Assembly: GCA_965207455.1 (NCBI GenBank)
Contig: CBDBMJ010000001.1
Location: forward strand, 1,120,001-1,184,000
Origin: Bdellovibrionota bacterium
GTDB lineage: Bacteria > Bdellovibrionota > UBA1018 > CAIPTA01 > JAALKR01
DNA: 64,000 bases
Reading direction: 5' to 3'
Positions 49,857 to 61,523 of this stretch are shown piece by piece. The notes beneath the pieces were generated by a model, which searched no databases, was not told the origin of the DNA, and saw only the letters and a program-made list of their open reading frames with translations. The position numbers and the translations under genes are program-made. Each line of letters opens with the position of its first letter. The stretch's first letter is position 1.

Positions 49857-52800
49857 TCACAGTGCTTCTAATAATCTTTTTACTTTTCTTCCCACTCTCT
49901 TTACTGCCAACCCTTTTTGTTTTTTTCTTGCTGCTGATTTCTCTATTTTTTCTATTGCTAATTCCCCAGCCCTTTTTATTGCCTCTTTTTCATTAAGAAC
50001 ACAACCGCACTTAATTTTATCTTTTAAAGACTCTACTTTGGTTCCTGTTTCCAAAATAATAGCAATCATATCTGTTGGAGTGAAAGATGGATCGACAGAT
50101 TTCACTTTAGCAGCAACTCTAGTCACCTGAGGTGCTGCGAATGAGGTTCCAGACGCATGACCACTAGTATTTTCAGGTTTAAAAGAAAGTATATCTTCAC
50201 CAGGAGCTGCAATATCAACATGAGTTTTGCTAAAATTTGAAAAGTCTGAAAGATTATTATTTCCATCAACTGATGCTACACTAAGTATATTTGGAGAATC
50301 ATTGGCTGCTGGGTAAACTGGGGTCTCATCCAAATTATTACCACTGTTTCCTGCAGCAACAACAAAAAGCATATTAGGAAAAGCTCGTACCGCATAACTT
50401 AGATTTTCTATAATCTTATATAAGAATGGAATAGAACTCCCCATACTTATATTGATAATCCTTGAACCTCTTCCATAGGCCAACACAACCGCATCATAAG
50501 CTTCAGCAAATGAGATCCTTATGGGAAGTATTTCGATATAATCACTTCCTTTAGATACTACCCCAGCAACCTGAGTACCATGATAGAAAGGTTCATCAAA
50601 TATCCTGAAAAATTTTTGTAGTTTTTCGTTGAAATATTTTTTATTATTATAGTCATAGGGCTCAGCATCTCCGTCAGCATAGTCCCAGCCAATATCAATG
50701 TTTTTATATCTTCTATAAATATCAGCGAGTTCAGATTCATATTCAGCCCTACTCCATAACCTTTGAATGGGATTCAAGGATTCAAACGTATTGACTAGTT
50801 TTTGTGCTTCAGCTTCAAGTCTTACTTTCTCTATTTTGCGAGTCTCTTTATCTAATTTATTAACAGACATTTTATTAATTTTGTAAGCAATACCTCTATC
50901 ATTATAACTTATACCCATATCAAATATCGTGACCAATGTGCGATCAATTTTTTTAAGTTTTTCAAATAACTTAATAAGCAATTTAGGATGTGTACAATCA
51001 GCATAAATTTCTTCTAACGATAGCACCTCTTTGTTCACATATACAGTTCGAGTAATATTGCCATTTGAGTTAAACCATTTACGAGATTTTTGCCTTTCGC
51101 CATCGTACTCCCTAAGCTCACCTTTTATCAAATTACAACGAGAGTCAAACCAAGTTTTATTCAATATATTATGATCAAGAAGGAAGAATTGTCTTTCTGT
51201 ATGATTAACCTGCACATAAGATTTCCCTGAATTAAGATTCGCCATAATGTCAATGCTTGAAGGAGGAGGATATTTAGTCCACAGACGAAAATATCTACTA
51301 AGCCCGCTACCACCAGCAGTCAAAGTTACTTCTTTTCCTAATAATCTTTTTGCTTCTTTTCTAATTTTGTTTATATTTAAAGTAAATCCAGGGCCTAAAA
51401 CCTCGGGCTTCATTATATTTTTACATAAGATTTCTTTTCCTGCTTCATGATACTTATACCAAGGTCCAAAGATTTTTTTCAATGCGACAGTATCTCGTTG
51501 GGCCTCTTCCTTTAAATATTTTTGATAATCAGGTTCGTTATCAAGGTCTTTTGAAATAAGCCCGATAAAGGCCTCTGCCGGCTCAAAAGCAGAAAACCAA
51601 AGTGATTGTGCGTATCTTCTTGACTCATAAGACTCCACCTCAGCTATATCTTTACTATGAATACCTACACTAAGCACATCTTCAAAACTTCTAACAAATT
51701 TTGTTTTCTCCAATGCTATTTTAAGTTTTTTAAGACCCTCAAGAAATATATCATCCTCTACAGGAAAATCAGCTCTTTCAAAAAATCTACTCCGTTCATA
51801 ACCGTGTTTCTCTCTCAGTTCCTGCATAATTTCTGAAGTTAGTTTTCCTATGGCTTTTTTTAACATGATAGTTTTTTGTCTGCTCTTCGCAGCAGATTTT
51901 TTATCAGGTTTACCCTCTAGGTATTTTTGATAGGCAGGTTCATTATCAGGATCTGCTGAAATGAACTCGATAAAAGCTTCTGGTGGCTCTAATGTAGAAA
52001 AACCAAAGCTTTCATTCCCAAGCCAATAACGCACCGTGGGCATTTCCCCATTAAGAACATAGAGCTCAAGCACATTTTTAAAACTTCTAATAAACCTTGT
52101 TTTCTCTAGTGCTATTTTAAATTTCTTAAGAGTCTCAAAATACTTATGATCTCCTACATTAGGAGAACCTCCTTTTCTTAAAAAACCTGAGTATTTATAA
52201 CCATGCTTCTCTAGTATCTGATTGATCTCTAACGCCAGATCTGTTATAGCTTTTTTTAATGCAAGAACCTTTTGGCTAATGTTTGCAACAGCTCTTTCAC
52301 CGGGGTTATCCTCTAGATACTTTTGATAAACAGGTTCGTTATCAAGGTCTTCTGAAATAAGCTCGATAAAGATTTCTTCTCGCCCTAATACAGAAAATGA
52401 TAAATCGTCATACCTTACAGTATAATCTGCTTTAAGTATTTCTTCATTATAAAAATATAGTTGACCCACATATTTAAAATTTCTAATAAATTTTGTTTTC
52501 TCCAATGCTCTTTTAAATTTTTTAAGGCTTGTAAAAAGAATACTGTTTTTTACATCAGAAGAATTATCGCTACTTGAAAATCCATTCTGTCGGTAATCAT
52601 GTTTCTCTAGCATCTGTTCGATCTCTAGCTTTATATCTGCTATAGCTTTTTTCAATTTAATATCTTCTTGCCTAGCAATTGCGAGCTCTGGGTAATCCTT
52701 TAAGTACTTTTGATAGGCAGGTTCATTATCAGGATCTGCTGAAATGAGTTCAATAAAAGATTCTTCTTTCCCTAATGCAGGAAAAAAGAAATCTGATTCT

Positions 52801-53117
52801 TTGTAGCTCCTCGTATTATAAACTATTTTGTCGGTTAGTGGGAGATCTTCTTCCATATTATGAATGCTTAAAGAACGCACACCTTTAAAATTTCTAACAA
52901 GCTTTGTTTTCTCCAGTGCTCTTTTAAATTTTTTAAGACCTTCAATAAACATATCATTGCTTATGTTTTTATGATTTGAAAAATAATCCCATCCTTCATA
53001 ACCATGCTTTTCTTTCAATTCTTGCACAATTTCTGACTCTAATTCTCTTATAGTTTCATTAAAAGACAGGGCAAGCAGGAAGAATGTGGTTATTAAGATT
53101 GCAAAAGCACGAATCAT
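49857..53117 (-). CDS. Large secreted S8 subtilase with four N-terminal repeats
   Basis: Triad FDMG / HGTQVAG / GTSFAAP and AAGN; signal peptide; four ~130 aa repeats. Confidence 0.85.
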   Translation of the reverse strand: MIRAFAILITTFFLLALSFNETIRELESEIVQELKEKHGYEGWDYFSNHKNISNDMFIEGLKKFKRALEKTKLVRNFKGVRSLSIHNMEEDLPLTDKIVYNTRSYKESDFFFPALGKEESFIELISADPDNEPAYQKYLKDYPELAIARQEDIKLKKAIADIKLEIEQMLEKHDYRQNGFSSSDNSSDVKNSILFTSLKKFKRALEKTKFIRNFKYVGQLYFYNEEILKADYTVRYDDLSFSVLGREEIFIELISEDLDNEPVYQKYLEDNPGERAVANISQKVLALKKAITDLALEINQILEKHGYKYSGFLRKGGSPNVGDHKYFETLKKFKIALEKTRFIRSFKNVLELYVLNGEMPTVRYWLGNESFGFSTLEPPEAFIEFISADPDNEPAYQKYLEGKPDKKSAAKSRQKTIMLKKAIGKLTSEIMQELREKHGYERSRFFERADFPVEDDIFLEGLKKLKIALEKTKFVRSFEDVLSVGIHSKDIAEVESYESRRYAQSLWFSAFEPAEAFIGLISKDLDNEPDYQKYLKEEAQRDTVALKKIFGPWYKYHEAGKEILCKNIMKPEVLGPGFTLNINKIRKEAKRLLGKEVTLTAGGSGLSRYFRLWTKYPPPSSIDIMANLNSGKSYVQVNHTERQFFLLDHNILNKTWFDSRCNLIKGELREYDGERQKSRKWFNSNGNITRTVYVNKEVLSLEEIYADCTHPKLLIKLFEKLKKIDRTLVTIFDMGISYNDRGIAYKINKMSVNKLDKETRKIEKVRLEAEAQKLVNTFESLNPIQRLWSRAEYESELADIYRRYKNIDIGWDYADGDAEPYDYNNKKYFNEKLQKFFRIFDEPFYHGTQVAGVVSKGSDYIEILPIRISFAEAYDAVVLAYGRGSRIINISMGSSIPFLYKIIENLSYAVRAFPNMLFVVAAGNSGNNLDETPVYPAANDSPNILSVASVDGNNNLSDFSNFSKTHVDIAAPGEDILSFKPENTSGHASGTSFAAPQVTRVAAKVKSVDPSFTPTDMIAIILETGTKVESLKDKIKCGCVLNEKEAIKRAGELAIEKIEKSAARKKQKGLAVKRVGRKVKRLLEAL

Positions 53118-54032: not shown

Positions 54033-54213
54033 ACCAAATTCCAGCGCTTTTAAGAAATCATCATCTATAGGATAGCGAAAACCATAAAGCCTTTCCTTTA
54101 AGTCCATGTCGGACTCAAAGCGCTGCCTCTGTTCCTGAACATCGGTGAGCTCGCTAAAAGCATTGGCTAACTCCAAGCCATTGATATATATTTCAAATTC
54201 CTCTGCCACCGTA
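54033..54213 (-). pseudogene. Diverged internal fragment of epmA
   Basis: 181 bp collinear with 60576-60756, with several substitutions. Confidence 0.88.
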
Positions 54214-54299
54214 AGAATTGAGTAAAAAGGTCTAGATTTCTTAGATACTTCAATAAAAACAGTTATCTGAAGTTTTTGACATGGTAGACAAAATAATTC

Positions 54300-54328
54300 T
54301 TGACTCTCAGCCCGTCCTGGCGCATTAT
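54300..54328 (+). promoter_or_regulatory. Sigma70-like promoter, repeated at 56361-56389 and 59813-59841
   Basis: TTGACT-17 nt-CATTAT upstream of each paralogous secreted-protein gene. Confidence 0.55.
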
Positions 54329-54414
54329 GCACTTACTGACTTGCTGCATGGTGCGACTCAGCCCGTCCTGGCGGTCATTGGAAATATTAACAACATATGA
54401 AAGGAAATTTTAAA

Positions 54415-54936
54415 ATGAAAAAACAAAACATAATAATAACAACACTAGCAATGGCACTTGGACTTGCCATAGCGTTACCAGGATATTCTGTGTCTGAACC
54501 TAACGAACCAATGGTCATGGAACCAGAATCTGAACCTAGCCCACCAATGTTCTACTCGGAACCATTTAGCCCTATAGATATGATAGGTGGTAAAGAAGCC
54601 GAAAGTTGGCTAAATGAAAAATTTATGAATGCTGGGATTAGCGAAGATCAAGCAAAGACAGTTATAAATACTTACACTCCAGAAGCAACAGAACTTACCT
54701 TATCAACATTAGATTGGATTCTTGTAGAGTTGGAGTTGGAGTTACTCGAGCCAGAATGGACTCCAGAACAAAGGAAGAATTTTCTTCAACTAAGAATATT
54801 CTTAAATTTCACGAAGGTAGACATCCTTAAGCAAAAAATGGGAATGCTCGCTACGAAAGTATTTCCTGTTAAAAGTGTTCAAGATGAAGCTAAACCAGGC
54901 GATAACGTCAGACGAATGCTTGGGGCTGACCGGTAA
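54415..54936 (+). CDS. Secreted hypothetical protein, paralog A
   Basis: SD GAAAGGA, signal peptide, EP-rich linker. Confidence 0.8.
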   Translation: MKKQNIIITTLAMALGLAIALPGYSVSEPNEPMVMEPESEPSPPMFYSEPFSPIDMIGGKEAESWLNEKFMNAGISEDQAKTVINTYTPEATELTLSTLDWILVELELELLEPEWTPEQRKNFLQLRIFLNFTKVDILKQKMGMLATKVFPVKSVQDEAKPGDNVRRMLGADR

Positions 54937-54961
54937 GTATTTATTTACTCTGAAATACAGG

Positions 54962-54994
54962 AAAGCCTTCTTTAGAAAGAAGAGGGCTTTTTTT
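54962..54994 (+). terminator. Intrinsic terminator (homologs at ~57001-57032 and ~60417-60449)
   Basis: AAAGCCTTCTTT..GAAGAGGGCTTTTTTT. Confidence 0.75.
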
Positions 54995-55101: not shown

Positions 55102-56182
55102 ATGAAAAAAACATTATGCATACTAATTGCTCTAGTCTTGGTTAGTCCACAATACGCATACGCAGATAGCCCTGCCGCAGTAATTGCAGAAAAAGCGAAA
55201 AGGGATGTAAAAGATGAAGCTGCAGCTAGAGAAGCTGAGAAGGCAGCCAAATTAGAGGAAAGAATTAATAGAGCAGTTGAAAGAGTTAAGGAGAGAGCTG
55301 AAATTATTGAGACCGCTGAAATGGATCGGAAAGCACATAAAGCAGCTCAAGAGCCAGTTCTTGACAAACAAAACGCAGAAGCAATTATGTTTTGGAAAAA
55401 TAACAATCATGTTGGTGAAATGGTAATGGTAACGACCGCTACAGTCGCTGGAGCCATCTTGATCCTCAGCCACTCATCAGCAAACGTCATGCGCTCATTG
55501 ATTGGGTTTACTGGAATCGGTTTATTCTTTAGCGGCCTTTACTATGGCGGTATTCTCGTTTTAAAATATAGCCAAGCTAAAGCTTCTGAATATCCACCAC
55601 GTGCCTCCACTTATACTGATGGACCCTCGAAAGAAGTTTTATCCAAACTTGATACGCTAAAAGAACTTAAACACCAAATTGAAGCTTGTAAAATTGTAAG
55701 CGAAGAATGCCATGAGATCCAAGAAACATGCCGTGCTGGTAACCTAAGAGAGGCAGTTTTCAGAGTTAGTTTTAAAATATAGCCAAGCTAAAGCTTCTGA
55801 ATATCCACCACGTGCCTCCACTTATACTGATGGACCCTCGAAAGAAGTTTTATCCAAACTTGATACGCTAAAAGAACTTAAACACCAAATTGAAGCTTGT
55901 AAAATTGTAAGCGAAGAATGCCATGAGATCCAAGAAACATGCCGTGCTGGTAACCTAAGAGAGGCAGTTTTCAGAGTTAGGGACTATAAACGTAATGGCT
56001 GCCTTTCTTATTTTTATGTACTTACCAAGCCATACCAGGTGGATTATATTATAGACAATGATTTAGTTCACAAAGACTTTATCAGTAAAGTGGTTGATTT
56101 CAAAAACCAACATATAGATGAAGTTGGAAAAAATATTAGTACAGTATATGTTCCAGAGAAAGGTACCTATACTCCCCACTAG
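55102..56182 (+). pseudogene. Secreted/membrane protein gene interrupted by a 211 bp tandem duplication
   Basis: Removing one copy restores an 870 bp ORF ending at TAG 56180-56182; currently stops at 55782. Confidence 0.8.
55559..55980. repeat. Perfect 211 bp tandem duplication
   Basis: 55559-55769 = 55770-55980. Confidence 0.95.
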
Positions 56183-56461
56183 AGCCTTATGCTCAATAGT
56201 AACCTTCAGCACAAGGGCTAGAGCACTCCTCTATCCTTGGGAACTGTAGCATACATAATACCTATGGGTCGAATAGCTCTTGAGTAAAAAAATCCAGCTT
56301 TATCAAATACTTTAATAAAAACAGTAATTTAAGTTTTTGACATGGTAGACAAAATAATTCTTGACTCTCAGCCCGTCCTGGCGCATTATGCACTTACTGA
56401 CTTGCTGCATGGTGCGACTGGTCATTGGAAATATTAACAACATATGAAAGGAAATTTTAAA

Positions 56462-56902
56462 ATGAAAAAACAAAACGTAATAATAACAACACTAGCAATG
56501 GCACTTGGACTTGCCATAGCGTTACCAGGATATTCTGTGTCTGAACCTAACGAACCAATGGTCATGGAAGCAGAATCTGAACCTAGCCCACCAATGTTCT
56601 ACTCGGAACCATTTAGCCCTATAGATATGATAGGTGGTAAAGAAGTCGAGAACTGGCTAAATGAAAGATATGCCAGTGTTGGGCTTACTGGAGAGAAGGT
56701 AGATAAAACTTTTCGTACTGACACTTTAGATGAAATAGATTTTGTCTTGGCAGGATTAGATTGGCTTATTGGAGAAGTGAACATGGAATTATTCAATGAA
56801 AAATTGACTCCAGAGCAAAAGAAAAATTTTCATCAACTAAGAACATTCATCAATTCTCGTAGAGTAGAGGTTCTTAAGAAAAAAGTGGAAATACTTCTTT
56901 AA
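56462..56902 (+). CDS. Secreted hypothetical protein, paralog B
   Basis: N-terminus nearly identical to paralog A, divergent C-terminus. Confidence 0.8.
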   Translation: MKKQNVIITTLAMALGLAIALPGYSVSEPNEPMVMEAESEPSPPMFYSEPFSPIDMIGGKEVENWLNERYASVGLTGEKVDKTFRTDTLDEIDFVLAGLDWLIGEVNMELFNEKLTPEQKKNFHQLRTFINSRRVEVLKKKVEILL

Positions 56903-57048
56903 TGATCTTACAGAATAATCGGGTTACGGCTGGTACAGTCGCTAACGTCAGATGAGTGTTTGGCGTCAACCGATAAGTATTTATTTACTCTGAATACAGG
57001 AAAGCCTTCTTTAGAAATGAAGAGGGCTTTTTTCCATCTTTTTTCTAA

Positions 57049-57503
57049 CTACAAAGCGGACCACAGGGAAGCCCACTGTACATCCTTAATATGCTCTGCC
57101 CTCGTCAAGAGCATCAATAGACGGTCGAAACCCAAAGCAATGCCGCTACACTTGGGTAGACCAAATTCCAGCGCTTTTAAAAAATCCTCATCTATGGGAT
57201 AGCGAAAACCATAAAGCTTCTCCTTTAAGTCCATATCGGACTCAAAGCGCTCTCTCTGTTCCTGAACATCGGTGAGCTCGCTAAAGGCATTGGCTAACTC
57301 CAAGCCATTGATATATATTTCAAATCGCTCTGCCACCGTAGCATCCGTTTCTTTTTTTCGAGATAGGGCTGCCATGGAAGCAGGGTATTCATACAGAATC
57401 GTTGGAGCACCTATTCCAAGCTTGGGCTCAATTCTGTCTAAAAAAATACGAAAGAAAATATCTTCCCATCGATCATCCTCCTTAAACGATATACCAATTT
57501 TTT
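57049..57503 (-). pseudogene. Duplicated 3' part of epmA, truncated at the IS end
   Basis: Matches 60465-60919. Confidence 0.9.
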
Positions 57504-59379
57504 CCTGAGTTCGACGCGTCAAAGCTGAAGAGCAGCTCTGGGAGCGATGATTTAGTGCGGCGTGAGGCACTACGTTTACTCTATTTCATAGGGAACAAGC
57601 GAACGCTTCATGCCCATTACTTGGTATAATTTCTTTGCTGCTGGAGATGCTTTTGATGGAACCACATATCTTTTTTTCGTTTCTGTGTCTACAAGAACTG
57701 ATGCTTGGACTCTCAGGAGTTCATCTCTTATTTGGTTGAAGCTTATTCTCTCCCCCTGTTGCACTTCATAGCGATAGCTCAATTGCCTAGCTAAGGCATA
57801 GGTTAAAAAACATATATCAAGGTGAGCCTCAATCCTATACGGCATCCTGTGATAGATTGGGCGGACTTTTAAGTCGTGCTTATTTATTCTAAATGATTCT
57901 TCAATTTCCCAAAGGGACCGATACCTTTTAATAACACTTACTGCTGATTGCTTGGAGTTGGTAATATAGCCTGTTATTCCATCCCATTGCTCGGAAGATT
58001 TAATTTTTTTATCATCGATCACTGCACTTCTTTTGGATTCAAATGTTAAAAATTTATTAGTCCCATTGTTTTTAACCAATTTTTTAACCTCGATCTGGCC
58101 ATCCTTATCAGCTATTTTTTTTACTCTATCCACAAGTCTTTCTCGTGCCTTGCGATCGTTTGATGCCCTGAAGGGGCAGTAGCTTATAACAAGCCTCCGT
58201 CCCTTATAATCCAGATCTGTCGTCTTAAAGCTATTATTTTCATTATTTTTATTAATTTGGAGAATATTCTCCTTCATTGTTTTTGACATATTTTTGAGCT
58301 TTGCCCCCACAACATACCGCAGGTTTTCTCTTTCGAGTTCGCTCAAATTTTGATCAGAGAACATCCCTCTGTCTGCAGCAAAGTCAATATCATTAAGCGT
58401 GTATTTCTCTTTTAATCTTTTAATAGACGGAATCAATGTTTTCATTTCCATCGTGTTACCTGGAAAAACCTCATACGAAATAGGCAGCCCCTTGGGTGTT
58501 GTGATAAGTGCTAGCACTACCTGAGTTTCCTTAAACTTACAATCCTTACTAAATCCAAAATTCCTTAAATCATCAGGAGTAAAGCTCTCAAAGTAGAGAG
58601 TAGTTACATCAAATAGAAGAATATCAACTTTTTGATGTAATAAATCTAACGTGGACTCCCTGACTAAATCTCGGAGCCTCTGCCCTGCAGATTTACTTAG
58701 TTGAGTCATCATTCTGTAAATCTTTTCTACTGGTAATTTTACGCCAAAATCCTCCTCTAAGAGTTCAGATGTCCTCAGCTTGCTGGATGGATTTGCCAAT
58801 CTCGCTAAAACACAGCTTTTTAAAATAGCATTATTTGTTTCGGCAAATCTTCCTGTAAAAACAAAATCAAACTTTAATTGTTTATATAAAGCGCCAAATA
58901 CTTCTGGAACTCCTTCATTAAATCGCTGCTCTTCCCTGAGCTTTTTTAAATCTACTTTTATCGACTTATCTGTTTCTTTATAGGAATGTCGCTCTACCAA
59001 TTGCTCTGGCGTGAATATGGGTAGACTGGGCTGTTTTTCTTCCTCCATACGACATTTAATGGTTGCAGCAAGATGTAAGAGGTCTTTTAACTCTTCATCA
59101 TTATGTGCAGTACCAACATGCCTTACAATGGATTGAGATACTTTATTGCCTTTTCTATTAGCTTCGACAATTTGAACTGATGTTCGCCCATTTTTGTGGG
59201 GCGATTCTTTTTTTCTTATAAACATAACCCAAGGGTAACAAATTTTCAGATTATGTCAACAAAAAAAAATTATGAGGCACTACAATTCGACTTTTCAGAA
59301 AAAAAATTAAATTTGAAATAATTTCAGCTACTTAAAAAAATTAGCAGGGTGAAATTCTCTATGATGCGTCGAACTCGGG
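57504..59379 (-). mobile_element. IS1634-family insertion sequence (1876 bp)
   Basis: Terminal IRs CCTGAGTTCGACGCGTCA / TGATGCGTCGAACTCGGG (16/18 match); single DDE transposase. Confidence 0.92.
57576..59225 (-). CDS. IS1634-family DDE transposase
   Basis: FDVTTLYFES, GFSKD, ADRGM, LWEIEESFRINKHDL..RPIYH. Confidence 0.92.
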   Translation of the reverse strand: MFIRKKESPHKNGRTSVQIVEANRKGNKVSQSIVRHVGTAHNDEELKDLLHLAATIKCRMEEEKQPSLPIFTPEQLVERHSYKETDKSIKVDLKKLREEQRFNEGVPEVFGALYKQLKFDFVFTGRFAETNNAILKSCVLARLANPSSKLRTSELLEEDFGVKLPVEKIYRMMTQLSKSAGQRLRDLVRESTLDLLHQKVDILLFDVTTLYFESFTPDDLRNFGFSKDCKFKETQVVLALITTPKGLPISYEVFPGNTMEMKTLIPSIKRLKEKYTLNDIDFAADRGMFSDQNLSELERENLRYVVGAKLKNMSKTMKENILQINKNNENNSFKTTDLDYKGRRLVISYCPFRASNDRKARERLVDRVKKIADKDGQIEVKKLVKNNGTNKFLTFESKRSAVIDDKKIKSSEQWDGITGYITNSKQSAVSVIKRYRSLWEIEESFRINKHDLKVRPIYHRMPYRIEAHLDICFLTYALARQLSYRYEVQQGERISFNQIRDELLRVQASVLVDTETKKRYVVPSKASPAAKKLYQVMGMKRSLVPYEIE

Positions 59380-60919
59380 ATCCAAGAAACATGCCGTGCT
59401 GGTAACCTAAGAGAGGCAGTTTTCAGAGTTAGGGACTATAAACGTAATGGCTGCCTTTCTTATTTTTATGTACTTACCAAGCCATACCAGGTGGATTATA
59501 TTATAGACAATGATTTAGTTCACAAAGACTTTATCAGTAAAGTGGTTGATTTCAAAAACCAACATATAGATGAAGTTGGAAAAAATATTAGTACAGTATA
59601 TGTTCCAGAGAAAGGTACCTATACTCCCCACTAGAGCCTTATGCTCAATAGTAACCTTCAGCACAAGGGCTAGAGCACTCCTCTATCCTTGGGAACTGTA
59701 GCATACATAATACCTATGGGTCGAATAGCTCTTGAGTAAAAAAATCCAGCTTTATCAAATACTTTAATAAAAACAGTAATTTAAGTTTTTGACATGGTAG
59801 ACAAAATAATTCTTGACTCTCAGCCCGTCCTGGCGCATTATGCACTTACTGACTTGCTGCATGGTGCGACTGGTCATTGGAAATATTAACAACATATGAA
59901 AGGAAATTTTAAAATGAAAAAACAAAACGTAATAATAACAACACTAGCAATGGCACTTGGACTTGCCATAGCGTTACCAGGATATTCTGTGTCTGAACCT
60001 AACGAACCAATGTTCTACTCGGAACCATTTAGCCCTATAGATATGATAGGTGGTAAAGAAGTCGAGAACTGGCTAAATGAAAGATATGCCAGTGTTGGGC
60101 TTACTGGAGAGAAGAGAGATAAAACTTTTCGTACTGACACTTTAGATGAAATAGATTTTGTCTTGGCAGGATTAGATTGGCTTATTGGAGAAGTGAACAT
60201 GGAATTATTCAATGAAAAATTGACTCCAGAGCAAAAGAAAAATTTTCATCAACTAAGAACATTCATCAATTCTCGTAGAGTAGAGGTTCTTAAGAAAAAA
60301 GTGGAAATACTTCTTTAATGATCTTACAGAATAATCGGGTTACGGCTGGTACAGTCGCTAACGTCAGATGAGTGTTTGGCGTCAACCGATAAGTATTTAT
60401 TTACTCTGAATACAGGAAAGCCTTCTTTAGAAATGAAGAGGGCTTTTTTCCATCTTTTTTCTAACTACAAAGCGGACCACAGGGAAGCCCACTGTACATC
60501 CTTAATATGCTCTGCCCTCGTCAAGAGCATCAATAGACGGTCGAAACCCAAAGCAATGCCGCTACACTTGGGTAGACCAAATTCCAGCGCTTTTAAAAAA
60601 TCCTCATCTATGGGATAGCGAAAACCATAAAGCTTCTCCTTTAAGTCCATATCGGACTCAAAGCGCTCTCTCTGTTCCTGAACATCGGTGAGCTCGCTAA
60701 AGGCATTGGCTAACTCCAAGCCATTGATATATATTTCAAATCGCTCTGCCACCGTAGCATCCGTTTCTTTTTTTCGAGATAGGGCTGCCATGGAAGCAGG
60801 GTATTCATACAGAATCGTTGGAGCACCTATTCCAAGCTTGGGCTCAATTCTGTCTAAAAAAATACGAAAGAAAATATCTTCCCATCGATCATCCTCCTTA
60901 AACGATATACCAATTTTTT
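59380..60919. repeat. Right long direct repeat flanking the IS (1540 bp)
   Basis: Copy of 55928-57503, starting at the first base after the IR. Confidence 0.95.
59914..60318 (+). CDS. Secreted hypothetical protein, paralog C
   Basis: Copy of paralog B with a 12 aa in-frame deletion and a V>R change. Confidence 0.8.
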   Translation: MKKQNVIITTLAMALGLAIALPGYSVSEPNEPMFYSEPFSPIDMIGGKEVENWLNERYASVGLTGEKRDKTFRTDTLDEIDFVLAGLDWLIGEVNMELFNEKLTPEQKKNFHQLRTFINSRRVEVLKKKVEILL

Positions 60920-61523
60920 TTGCCTCTTCCCCCAATACCTTAGGATTGTTAGGACTCTCCAAATTTAAATTTACCTCAGCATAACGGAAGAAAGCATCTT
61001 TTACTGTAATCCTTTCCCAGTCTTTATGGGGGTCGCAACTTTTCCCTGCCCAGTGATACTTTCCATCTTTGCTAAGCACGGAAACTCTACGCAAGAGCTG
61101 CTCGCAGTCTTCCATAATTTTTGTATAGTCCACGCCTGTCCTATACCACTCCAAAAGAAGAAACTCAGAGCGATGGGTGGAGGACTCCTCCCTATTCCGA
61201 AAAACAGTGGCCAATTGAAAAATCTTTTCCATTCCTCCCACTAAAATCTTCTTCATGGCAAACTCAGGAGAGGTATGTAAATGAACAGTGGCGCGTTTTT
61301 CACCTGCCTGATCCTCAAGTTGGGTGGTAAATGCCATAAGGTGGGGCTCCAATCCAGGAGAGCGCTGCAAAATCGGCGTGTCCACAGGAGAAAATTCCTT
61401 TTCCATAAAAAAAGCAACAATTTCTTCTTTGAGTTGCTGACGAATTTTTAAAATAGGCTTTTTCTTCTCCAATGTCTTGGGATGCCACCACGGATTTTCA
61501 TATTCTTTCATGTCGATTTTCAT
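60465..61523 (-). CDS. epmA: EF-P lysine aminoacylase EpmA (GenX/PoxA)
   Basis: LHTSPEFAMKK, FRNRE, LEWYR, ERFE..GLELANAF.EL, GIALGFDRL; no anticodon-binding domain. Confidence 0.94.
   Translation of the reverse strand: MKIDMKEYENPWWHPKTLEKKKPILKIRQQLKEEIVAFFMEKEFSPVDTPILQRSPGLEPHLMAFTTQLEDQAGEKRATVHLHTSPEFAMKKILVGGMEKIFQLATVFRNREESSTHRSEFLLLEWYRTGVDYTKIMEDCEQLLRRVSVLSKDGKYHWAGKSCDPHKDWERITVKDAFFRYAEVNLNLESPNNPKVLGEEAKKIGISFKEDDRWEDIFFRIFLDRIEPKLGIGAPTILYEYPASMAALSRKKETDATVAERFEIYINGLELANAFSELTDVQEQRERFESDMDLKEKLYGFRYPIDEDFLKALEFGLPKCSGIALGFDRLLMLLTRAEHIKDVQWASLWSAL

Follow-up and report, generated by a model that had tools for sequence, protein, structure and literature searches.

We report on a 64,000-nucleotide stretch of a Bdellovibrionota bacterium (the window; assembly GCA_965207455.1, contig CBDBMJ010000001.1, positions 1,120,001 to 1,184,000, here G000:C1:1120001-1184000, with unprefixed positions counted from its first base). 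It carries a 1,876-bp insertion sequence (IS) of the IS1634 family at 57504-59379, flanked on the left by a direct repeat of 1,576 bp and on the right by its 1,540-bp counterpart. Each repeat ends exactly where a terminal inverted repeat (IR) of the IS begins, and the outer ends of the repeats are free of any IS. The two copies of the 1,576-bp unit are most likely the target-site duplication of one event, and this length is likely to be the tail of a known, unexplained trait, reaching about three times beyond the published range that we found (8-514 bp). We give a probability of roughly 0.7 to a single transposition in which the two strands were nicked at independently chosen sites and the 1,576 bp between the nicks was then copied by strand-displacement synthesis converging from both sides.

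The source genome (G000) measures 2.38 Mb in three contigs free of N, one of them of 1.9 Mb. The coordinates that an earlier note on this DNA had given for the repeats and the IS (55928-57503 and 59380-60919, around 1,876 bp bounded by both IRs) are exact, and the IRs agree at 16 of their first 18 bases. The repeat copies differ by two changes only: the right copy has lost 36 bp (~56554-56589 on the left) between two 7-bp ACCAATG repeats, and GT has become AG (56699-56700 on the left, 60115-60116 on the right), which turns V into R in the encoded protein. Since an older paralogue at 54033-54994 retains the 36 bp, the right copy is the derived one. The structure is confirmed in the assembly only; the one public sequencing run that holds the region, X1, gave contigs without the filled site.

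Each repeat contains a complete open reading frame (ORF; 152 aa on the left, 140 aa on the right), a hairpin that resembles a terminator, and the 3' end of epmA; this last gene stands whole on the right. In these contents the earlier note was correct; the promoter that it had added is a weak consensus match (9/12), of a kind found at 21 sites against 13.2 ± 3.6 in shuffles. The note's description of the duplicated protein as secreted has its basis in a hydrophobic N-terminal stretch judged by eye, and searches of Pfam, NCBIfam and Atlas gave no match to the protein. Both target sites lie within coding sequence, ORF 55102 on the left and epmA on the right.

The assignment of the element to the IS1634 family, also made by the earlier note, is supported by several sequence features. 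Its transposase matches NF033559 (E=3e-98, 329.9 bits, cut-off 100), and a length of 1,876 bp with one 549-aa ORF agrees with the 1,500-2,000 bp and single ORF of the family, a range taken from a table in the accessible part of a 2008 review (PMC2266710). The terminal consensus C-----YT is present at both ends, with C at position 1 and TT at 7-8. The putative catalytic triad (D206, D285, E442), chosen by motif, has the long second spacer of the family, and the YREK motif appears without its R, as Y-2-L-3-E-6-K. According to the same part of the review, family members typically duplicate 5-6 bp of AT-rich target; here the duplications are of 30 and 1,576 bp. This does not exclude membership because the namesake IS1634 departs from the rule as well: repeats of IS1634 and IS1549 are described there as long and variable, from 8 to 514 bp (PMC2266710), and long repeats of variable length are likewise a property of our element and its relatives.

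Only two copies of the element occur in the 2.4 Mb genome. The second (G000:C1:1666973-1668709) has a 139-bp internal deletion and a perfect 30-bp repeat, and a related element at C1:287227-289194 is flanked by a 302-bp repeat. The richest comparison came from another genome of the same phylum, G189, in which a 1,866-bp element with a 43% identical transposase is present in 21 near-full copies. Nineteen of these have repeats, 18 without a mismatch, with lengths of 46, 69, 71, 128, 137, 140, 179, 181, 201, 203, 237, 252, 298, 302, 461, 504, 522, 643 and 1,406 bp; a decayed copy adds a 31-bp repeat. The perfect 1,406-bp repeat (L117 7463-12140, G189:C13:518462-523139) doubles a complete 158-aa ORF, and its unit is present whole only twice in that genome. 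A second IS on both sides was considered as its source and rejected, as only parts of the unit recur elsewhere (up to ~500 bp of an IS remnant, and a diverged paralogue at 81%). This independent case strengthens the earlier note's view of the kilobase repeat as a long target duplication that doubles a whole gene. Further genomes gave repeats of 101, 103, 117 and 316 bp.

Across the window element and its relatives, repeat lengths spread continuously from 30 to 1,576 bp. The 34 repeats have a median of 202 bp; 4 of them exceed 514 bp, 2 exceed 1 kb, and two (1,576 bp in the window, 1,406 bp in G189) enclose a complete gene. These statistics cover only repeat-bearing copies and lean on one genome (G189); set aside from them were an indel-bearing repeat of genome G045 (194/203 bp), one 8-bp match, a self-closing contig (L057), an array on contig C3 of G000 and the copies without repeats. 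A single normal curve is compatible with the logarithms of the lengths (Shapiro p 0.97 with n=20 in G189, 0.55 with n=34 overall), and under it a repeat of at least 1,576 bp has a chance of 0.7-1.4%. Kilobase duplications are thus not the rule that the earlier note had made of them, given the 30 bp at the other copy, the median of 202 bp and 2 of 34 repeats above 1 kb; they form the tail. A short repeat at another copy had been named there as a sign of recombination between offset IS copies. The second copy does have one, and it does not refute the long duplication because short and long repeats share one curve in the relatives.

Target choice follows a simple rule. The first target base outward is A at 37 of 40 junctions in G189 and T at the other 3 (background 0.33, p 4e-15), all 40 coming from one element family in one genome. 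Both junctions in the window start with A (chance 0.09). The two joints are thereby shown to be transposase-made, a conclusion that holds equally for one event and for two. No preference for promoters was seen in a loose test, with -10-like hexamers near 12 of the 40 G189 junctions against 26.5% of random sites.

With transposases of the DDE type, the two cuts in the target are normally a fixed few bases apart. Starting from DDE chemistry, we infer a single event with looping and fill-in behind the observed structure, lengths and A rule. According to this model, the transposase would choose two sites independently on opposite strands of a single duplex, each starting with A, and join one of its 3' ends to each; the distance between the sites would not be fixed (through looping or successive capture), whereas the stagger is usually 5-10 bp. 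The target 3'-OH ends left free would then point towards each other, and strand displacement or a passing fork would copy the interval between them. With the stagger reversed, synthesis would start away from the interval and the event would abort, which would account for the predominance of duplications. Most events would copy ~200 bp; about one in a hundred would extend to 1.5 kb, enough to duplicate an entire small gene, each cut gene staying whole on one side. As a guess, the 36-bp deletion and a 211-bp tandem duplication at the left boundary may be slips during the long fill-in.

The 2008 review states that no model was then available to account for the long repeats of IS1634 and IS1549 and their variable length (PMC2266710), and we found no later one in the open-access literature. 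That literature (with few subscription journals and without ISfinder or supplements) also yielded no kilobase target duplication, and a longer value may be on record. In the parts available to us, a 55-bp repeat is called extremely long for another element (PMC7002104), and PMC11004492, PMC3053259 and PMC9392320 add nothing on repeat length. Our element resembles IS1634 and IS1549 in its family model, its single-ORF DDE transposase and its long repeats that vary from copy to copy, and it is close to IS1634 in size (1,876 against 1,872 bp; accessible text of PMC1798306). It differs from them in that, against a reported maximum of 514 bp in the text seen, 4 of 34 repeats here and in relatives are longer, two of them with a complete gene. 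ISGka5 of Geobacillus kaustophilus shares the family name and, in the available part of its report, made a 6-bp repeat on observed transposition (PMC8024623), unlike the 30 and 1,576 bp found here.

A known system on a multi-kilobase scale is the 13-kb repeat of Mycoplasma mycoides PG1, with IS1634 between and around its copies, described in the accessible text as unstable and read as an IS-driven rearrangement; it is present in some strains only and is lost on passage (PMC1798306). As in the window, multi-kilobase repeats are parted by an IS1634 element and truncated genes lie at the joint; unlike the window repeats, whose outer ends are free of IS, that repeat is flanked by IS copies. One may go further and speculate that a whole clade works without a fixed stagger, each end picking an A-site and a single insertion being able to double kilobases, and acts as a routine RecA-independent duplicator that seeds paralogue arrays such as the four-unit surface-protein array on C3, the 13-kb repeat of M. 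mycoides being the same event on a larger scale. We hold this extension only tentatively and think it somewhat doubtful.

Several observations weigh against a single event. The finished structure is identical to the product of recombination between two offset copies, and no transposition was observed. A third IS1634 element in G000, with four copies, has no clean repeat. An exponential fit puts 1,576 bp at only 0.2-0.5%. The lengths show no 10.5-bp helical phasing (p 0.24-0.48 in four sets) and so lend no support to a defined loop; a best period of 10.04 bp (p 0.03, one of the four sets) was discounted because it lies at the edge of the scan. Two of the 21 near-full G189 copies have no repeat (one none at all, one lacking an end), four short or nested end pairs of that genome gave none, G045 gave only 8 repeats of at least 30 bp (32-374 bp) in 20 loci, and 5 of 8 assessable loci from the collection scan were without one (L001, L004, L006, L008, L070). 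Finally, the X1 contigs show neither an IS junction at this site nor the right-copy alleles nor the two private bases of the window IS.

Recombination enters as the strongest rival, an unlikely one in our judgement: two same-orientation insertions 1.5 kb apart, on different chromosome copies, would have recombined through the IS. The outcome would be exactly the observed structure, its junctions made by transposase and starting with A; for M. mycoides, duplications of 8-24 kb bounded by IS, including the 13-kb one with IS1634 between and around, are described in the accessible text of PMC1798306; and swapped or composite flanks are seen in relatives (L078, L111, L083). Two matching insertions 1.5 kb apart are nevertheless improbable without local hopping when the 2.4 Mb genome has two copies of the element, and the G189 lengths run unbroken up to 643 bp and then to 1,406 bp, all on one curve. 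Slightly less probable still is one transposition at a replication fork, in which each IS end joins a different sister chromatid, the sites being offset, and repair of the broken arms produces a duplication with no need for long strand displacement. The lengths without helical phasing would follow from it, as would the copies without repeats (which would be deletions) and possibly the 211-bp duplication at the boundary. Random offsets should, however, give deletions about as often as duplications, and 19 of 21 G189 copies have repeats, an objection softened by selection against deletions, which could hide some.

The run X1, which may or may not be from the source sample, bears on whether the site is ever empty. 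Its unique flanks match the window with one difference among those listed, over ~4.5 kb. One contig, starting at 54569, has the 211-bp unit once and reaches the start of the repeat, another continues without a break across 60919, and the duplicated gene is at single-copy depth with the left alleles. Because of this depth and the two unbroken boundaries, X1 looks like the state before insertion; it thus points to a near-identical strain whose site is apparently empty, and the element seems mobile. The stretch 60014-60347, which holds the two-base change of the right copy, has no cover, and among the pieces listed (24 of 32 unlisted) no single contig spans the whole site. In the IS itself the bases of the second copy at 57733 and 58209 are at full depth, other variants being kept at ~23-27%. 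The IS end in X1 joins the flank of the second copy and one flank foreign to the assembly; another loose end at the IS terminus was rejected as a chance match. As contigs drop rare variants, this silence shows neither absence nor presence of the filled site. Elsewhere, 40 genomes searched for an empty site in relatives gave only weak epmA-level matches and no close relative.

The divergence of the repeat copies, which the earlier note had used against an assembly artefact, is a weak argument (and equally so for age), the right-copy alleles and the private bases of the IS not having been seen in X1. The least likely of the explanations is such an artefact, a chimera or consensus error in which the assembly entered the IS from one allele and left it via another, the small differences and the 211-bp tandem being errors: X1 as the sole run lacks every filled-site feature, four private changes fall in 3.4 kb of IS and right repeat against one listed in ~4.5 kb of unique flank, and a perfect tandem at a repeat boundary has a chance of ~7e-4 (computed post hoc), but three contigs without N, one of 1.9 Mb, suggest that the reads exceeded the IS in length. 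In addition, both junctions coincide precisely with IR ends and follow the A rule, two real insertions 1.5 kb apart would be needed even for a chimera, and the 1,406-bp repeat of G189 owes nothing to this assembly.

Features at the IS and its surroundings (window positions)
Feature	Position	Strand	Remark
Older partial duplication: epmA piece (94%) joined to diverged promoter-gene-terminator cassette (82%)	54033..54994	+	
Left neighbour ORF 55102, 226 aa here, holds left target site	55102..55782	+	
Perfect 211-bp tandem duplication across left boundary, frameshifts ORF 55102	55558..55979	+	absent from run X1
Left direct repeat, 1,576 bp, ancestral alleles	55928..57503	+	36 bp in old paralogue; left alleles seen in run X1
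Duplicated gene, left copy, 152 aa from first ATG, hydrophobic N-terminus	56444..56902	+	
Terminator-like hairpin, left copy	56998..57033	+	right-copy counterpart 60414-60449
Orphan epmA 3' part, severed by IS	57049..57503	-	
IS1634-family IS, 1,876 bp	57504..59379	-	
Terminal inverted repeat, downstream of transposase	57504..57521	+	
Transposase, 549 aa, open frame, putative triad D206, D285, E442	57576..59225	-	NF033559, PF01609
Terminal inverted repeat, upstream of transposase	59362..59379	-	
Right direct repeat, 1,540 bp, 36-bp deletion and 2-base change	59380..60919	+	
Duplicated gene, right copy, 140 aa (12-aa deletion, V to R)	59896..60318	+	
Intact epmA (EF-P lysine aminoacylase), holds right target site	60465..61520	-	TIGR00462 E=1e-110, above cut-off

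The earlier note had described the element as non-disruptive, and it had missed both the 211-bp tandem at the left boundary and the older copy of the cassette. The description is only partly right: epmA is whole on the right, but both targets are coding and the 211-bp duplication frameshifts the left neighbour. In the allele with one 211-bp unit ORF 55102 has 289 aa, with its stop at 56180, and runs to 56182. The units (55558-55768 and 55769-55979) form one of two perfect tandems with a unit above 200 bp in G000. As the footprint of an excised copy the tandem is unsupported, one end breaking the A/T rule in either register; it may be a fill-in slip or an assembly error. At the joint of the older copy (54033-54994), which may or may not be an old IS footprint, neither an IS nor an IR was found. 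The 5' part of this copy is near-identical to the main copy and its middle has diverged to ~60-80%, a contrast that gene conversion or diversifying change may have produced. From a GTG within the end of the IS, a frame of 173 aa runs on into the orphan 3' part of epmA (57049-57570, minus strand); this fusion is probably non-functional. Further to the left (49857-53117) lies a 1,086-aa subtilase (Peptidase_S8) with four N-terminal repeats of ~132 aa.

Several other arrangements of these elements were found. On contig C3 (G000:C3:1207-30660; L122, L123), four units of 5.5-6.6 kb are parted by three near-identical copies of the third IS1634 element. Each unit has a large variable DUF285/Ig-like/LRR gene (1,193-1,563 aa) and the 3' part of ppdK, which is whole only at the far end, past the last unit. 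This layout may be that of the window in amplified form, that is, an amplified multi-kilobase target duplication; it is a hint only, because at the contig end a different IS stands in place of the start of the first unit, and the right junction starts with G. To the left of the C1 copy of the third element, 652 bp (C1:450573-451224) recur with 98% identity at C1:1188504-1189155, just past the window, stopping exactly at the IS boundary, with no IS there. The ends are different in two more distant family copies, at C1:787 kb and 812 kb. The ends of the relatives bound composite transposons of 9-10 kb (L078, G045:C2:13291-22473; L111, G189:C11:399818-409481), with repeats of 190 bp and 302 bp, respectively, around the whole composite; one of them uses a 155-bp miniature inverted-repeat transposable element. 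The self-closing contig L057 (1-3675), with one IS and a 1,743-bp unit of two ORFs, fits a collapsed long repeat or an excised circle. The flanks of 51 metagenome loci were mostly too short to judge, a plasmid scan gave 2 records, and a 350-genome sample of another phylum gave one further match.

If one event can copy 1.5 kb, the two ends of the element must choose their targets separately and the host must copy the interval between them. The length curve, the A rule and the two open-frame transposases (in the window and in G189) give predictions that separate the models. Should the single-event reading be true, an IS of this family would be a direct source of whole-gene duplicates.

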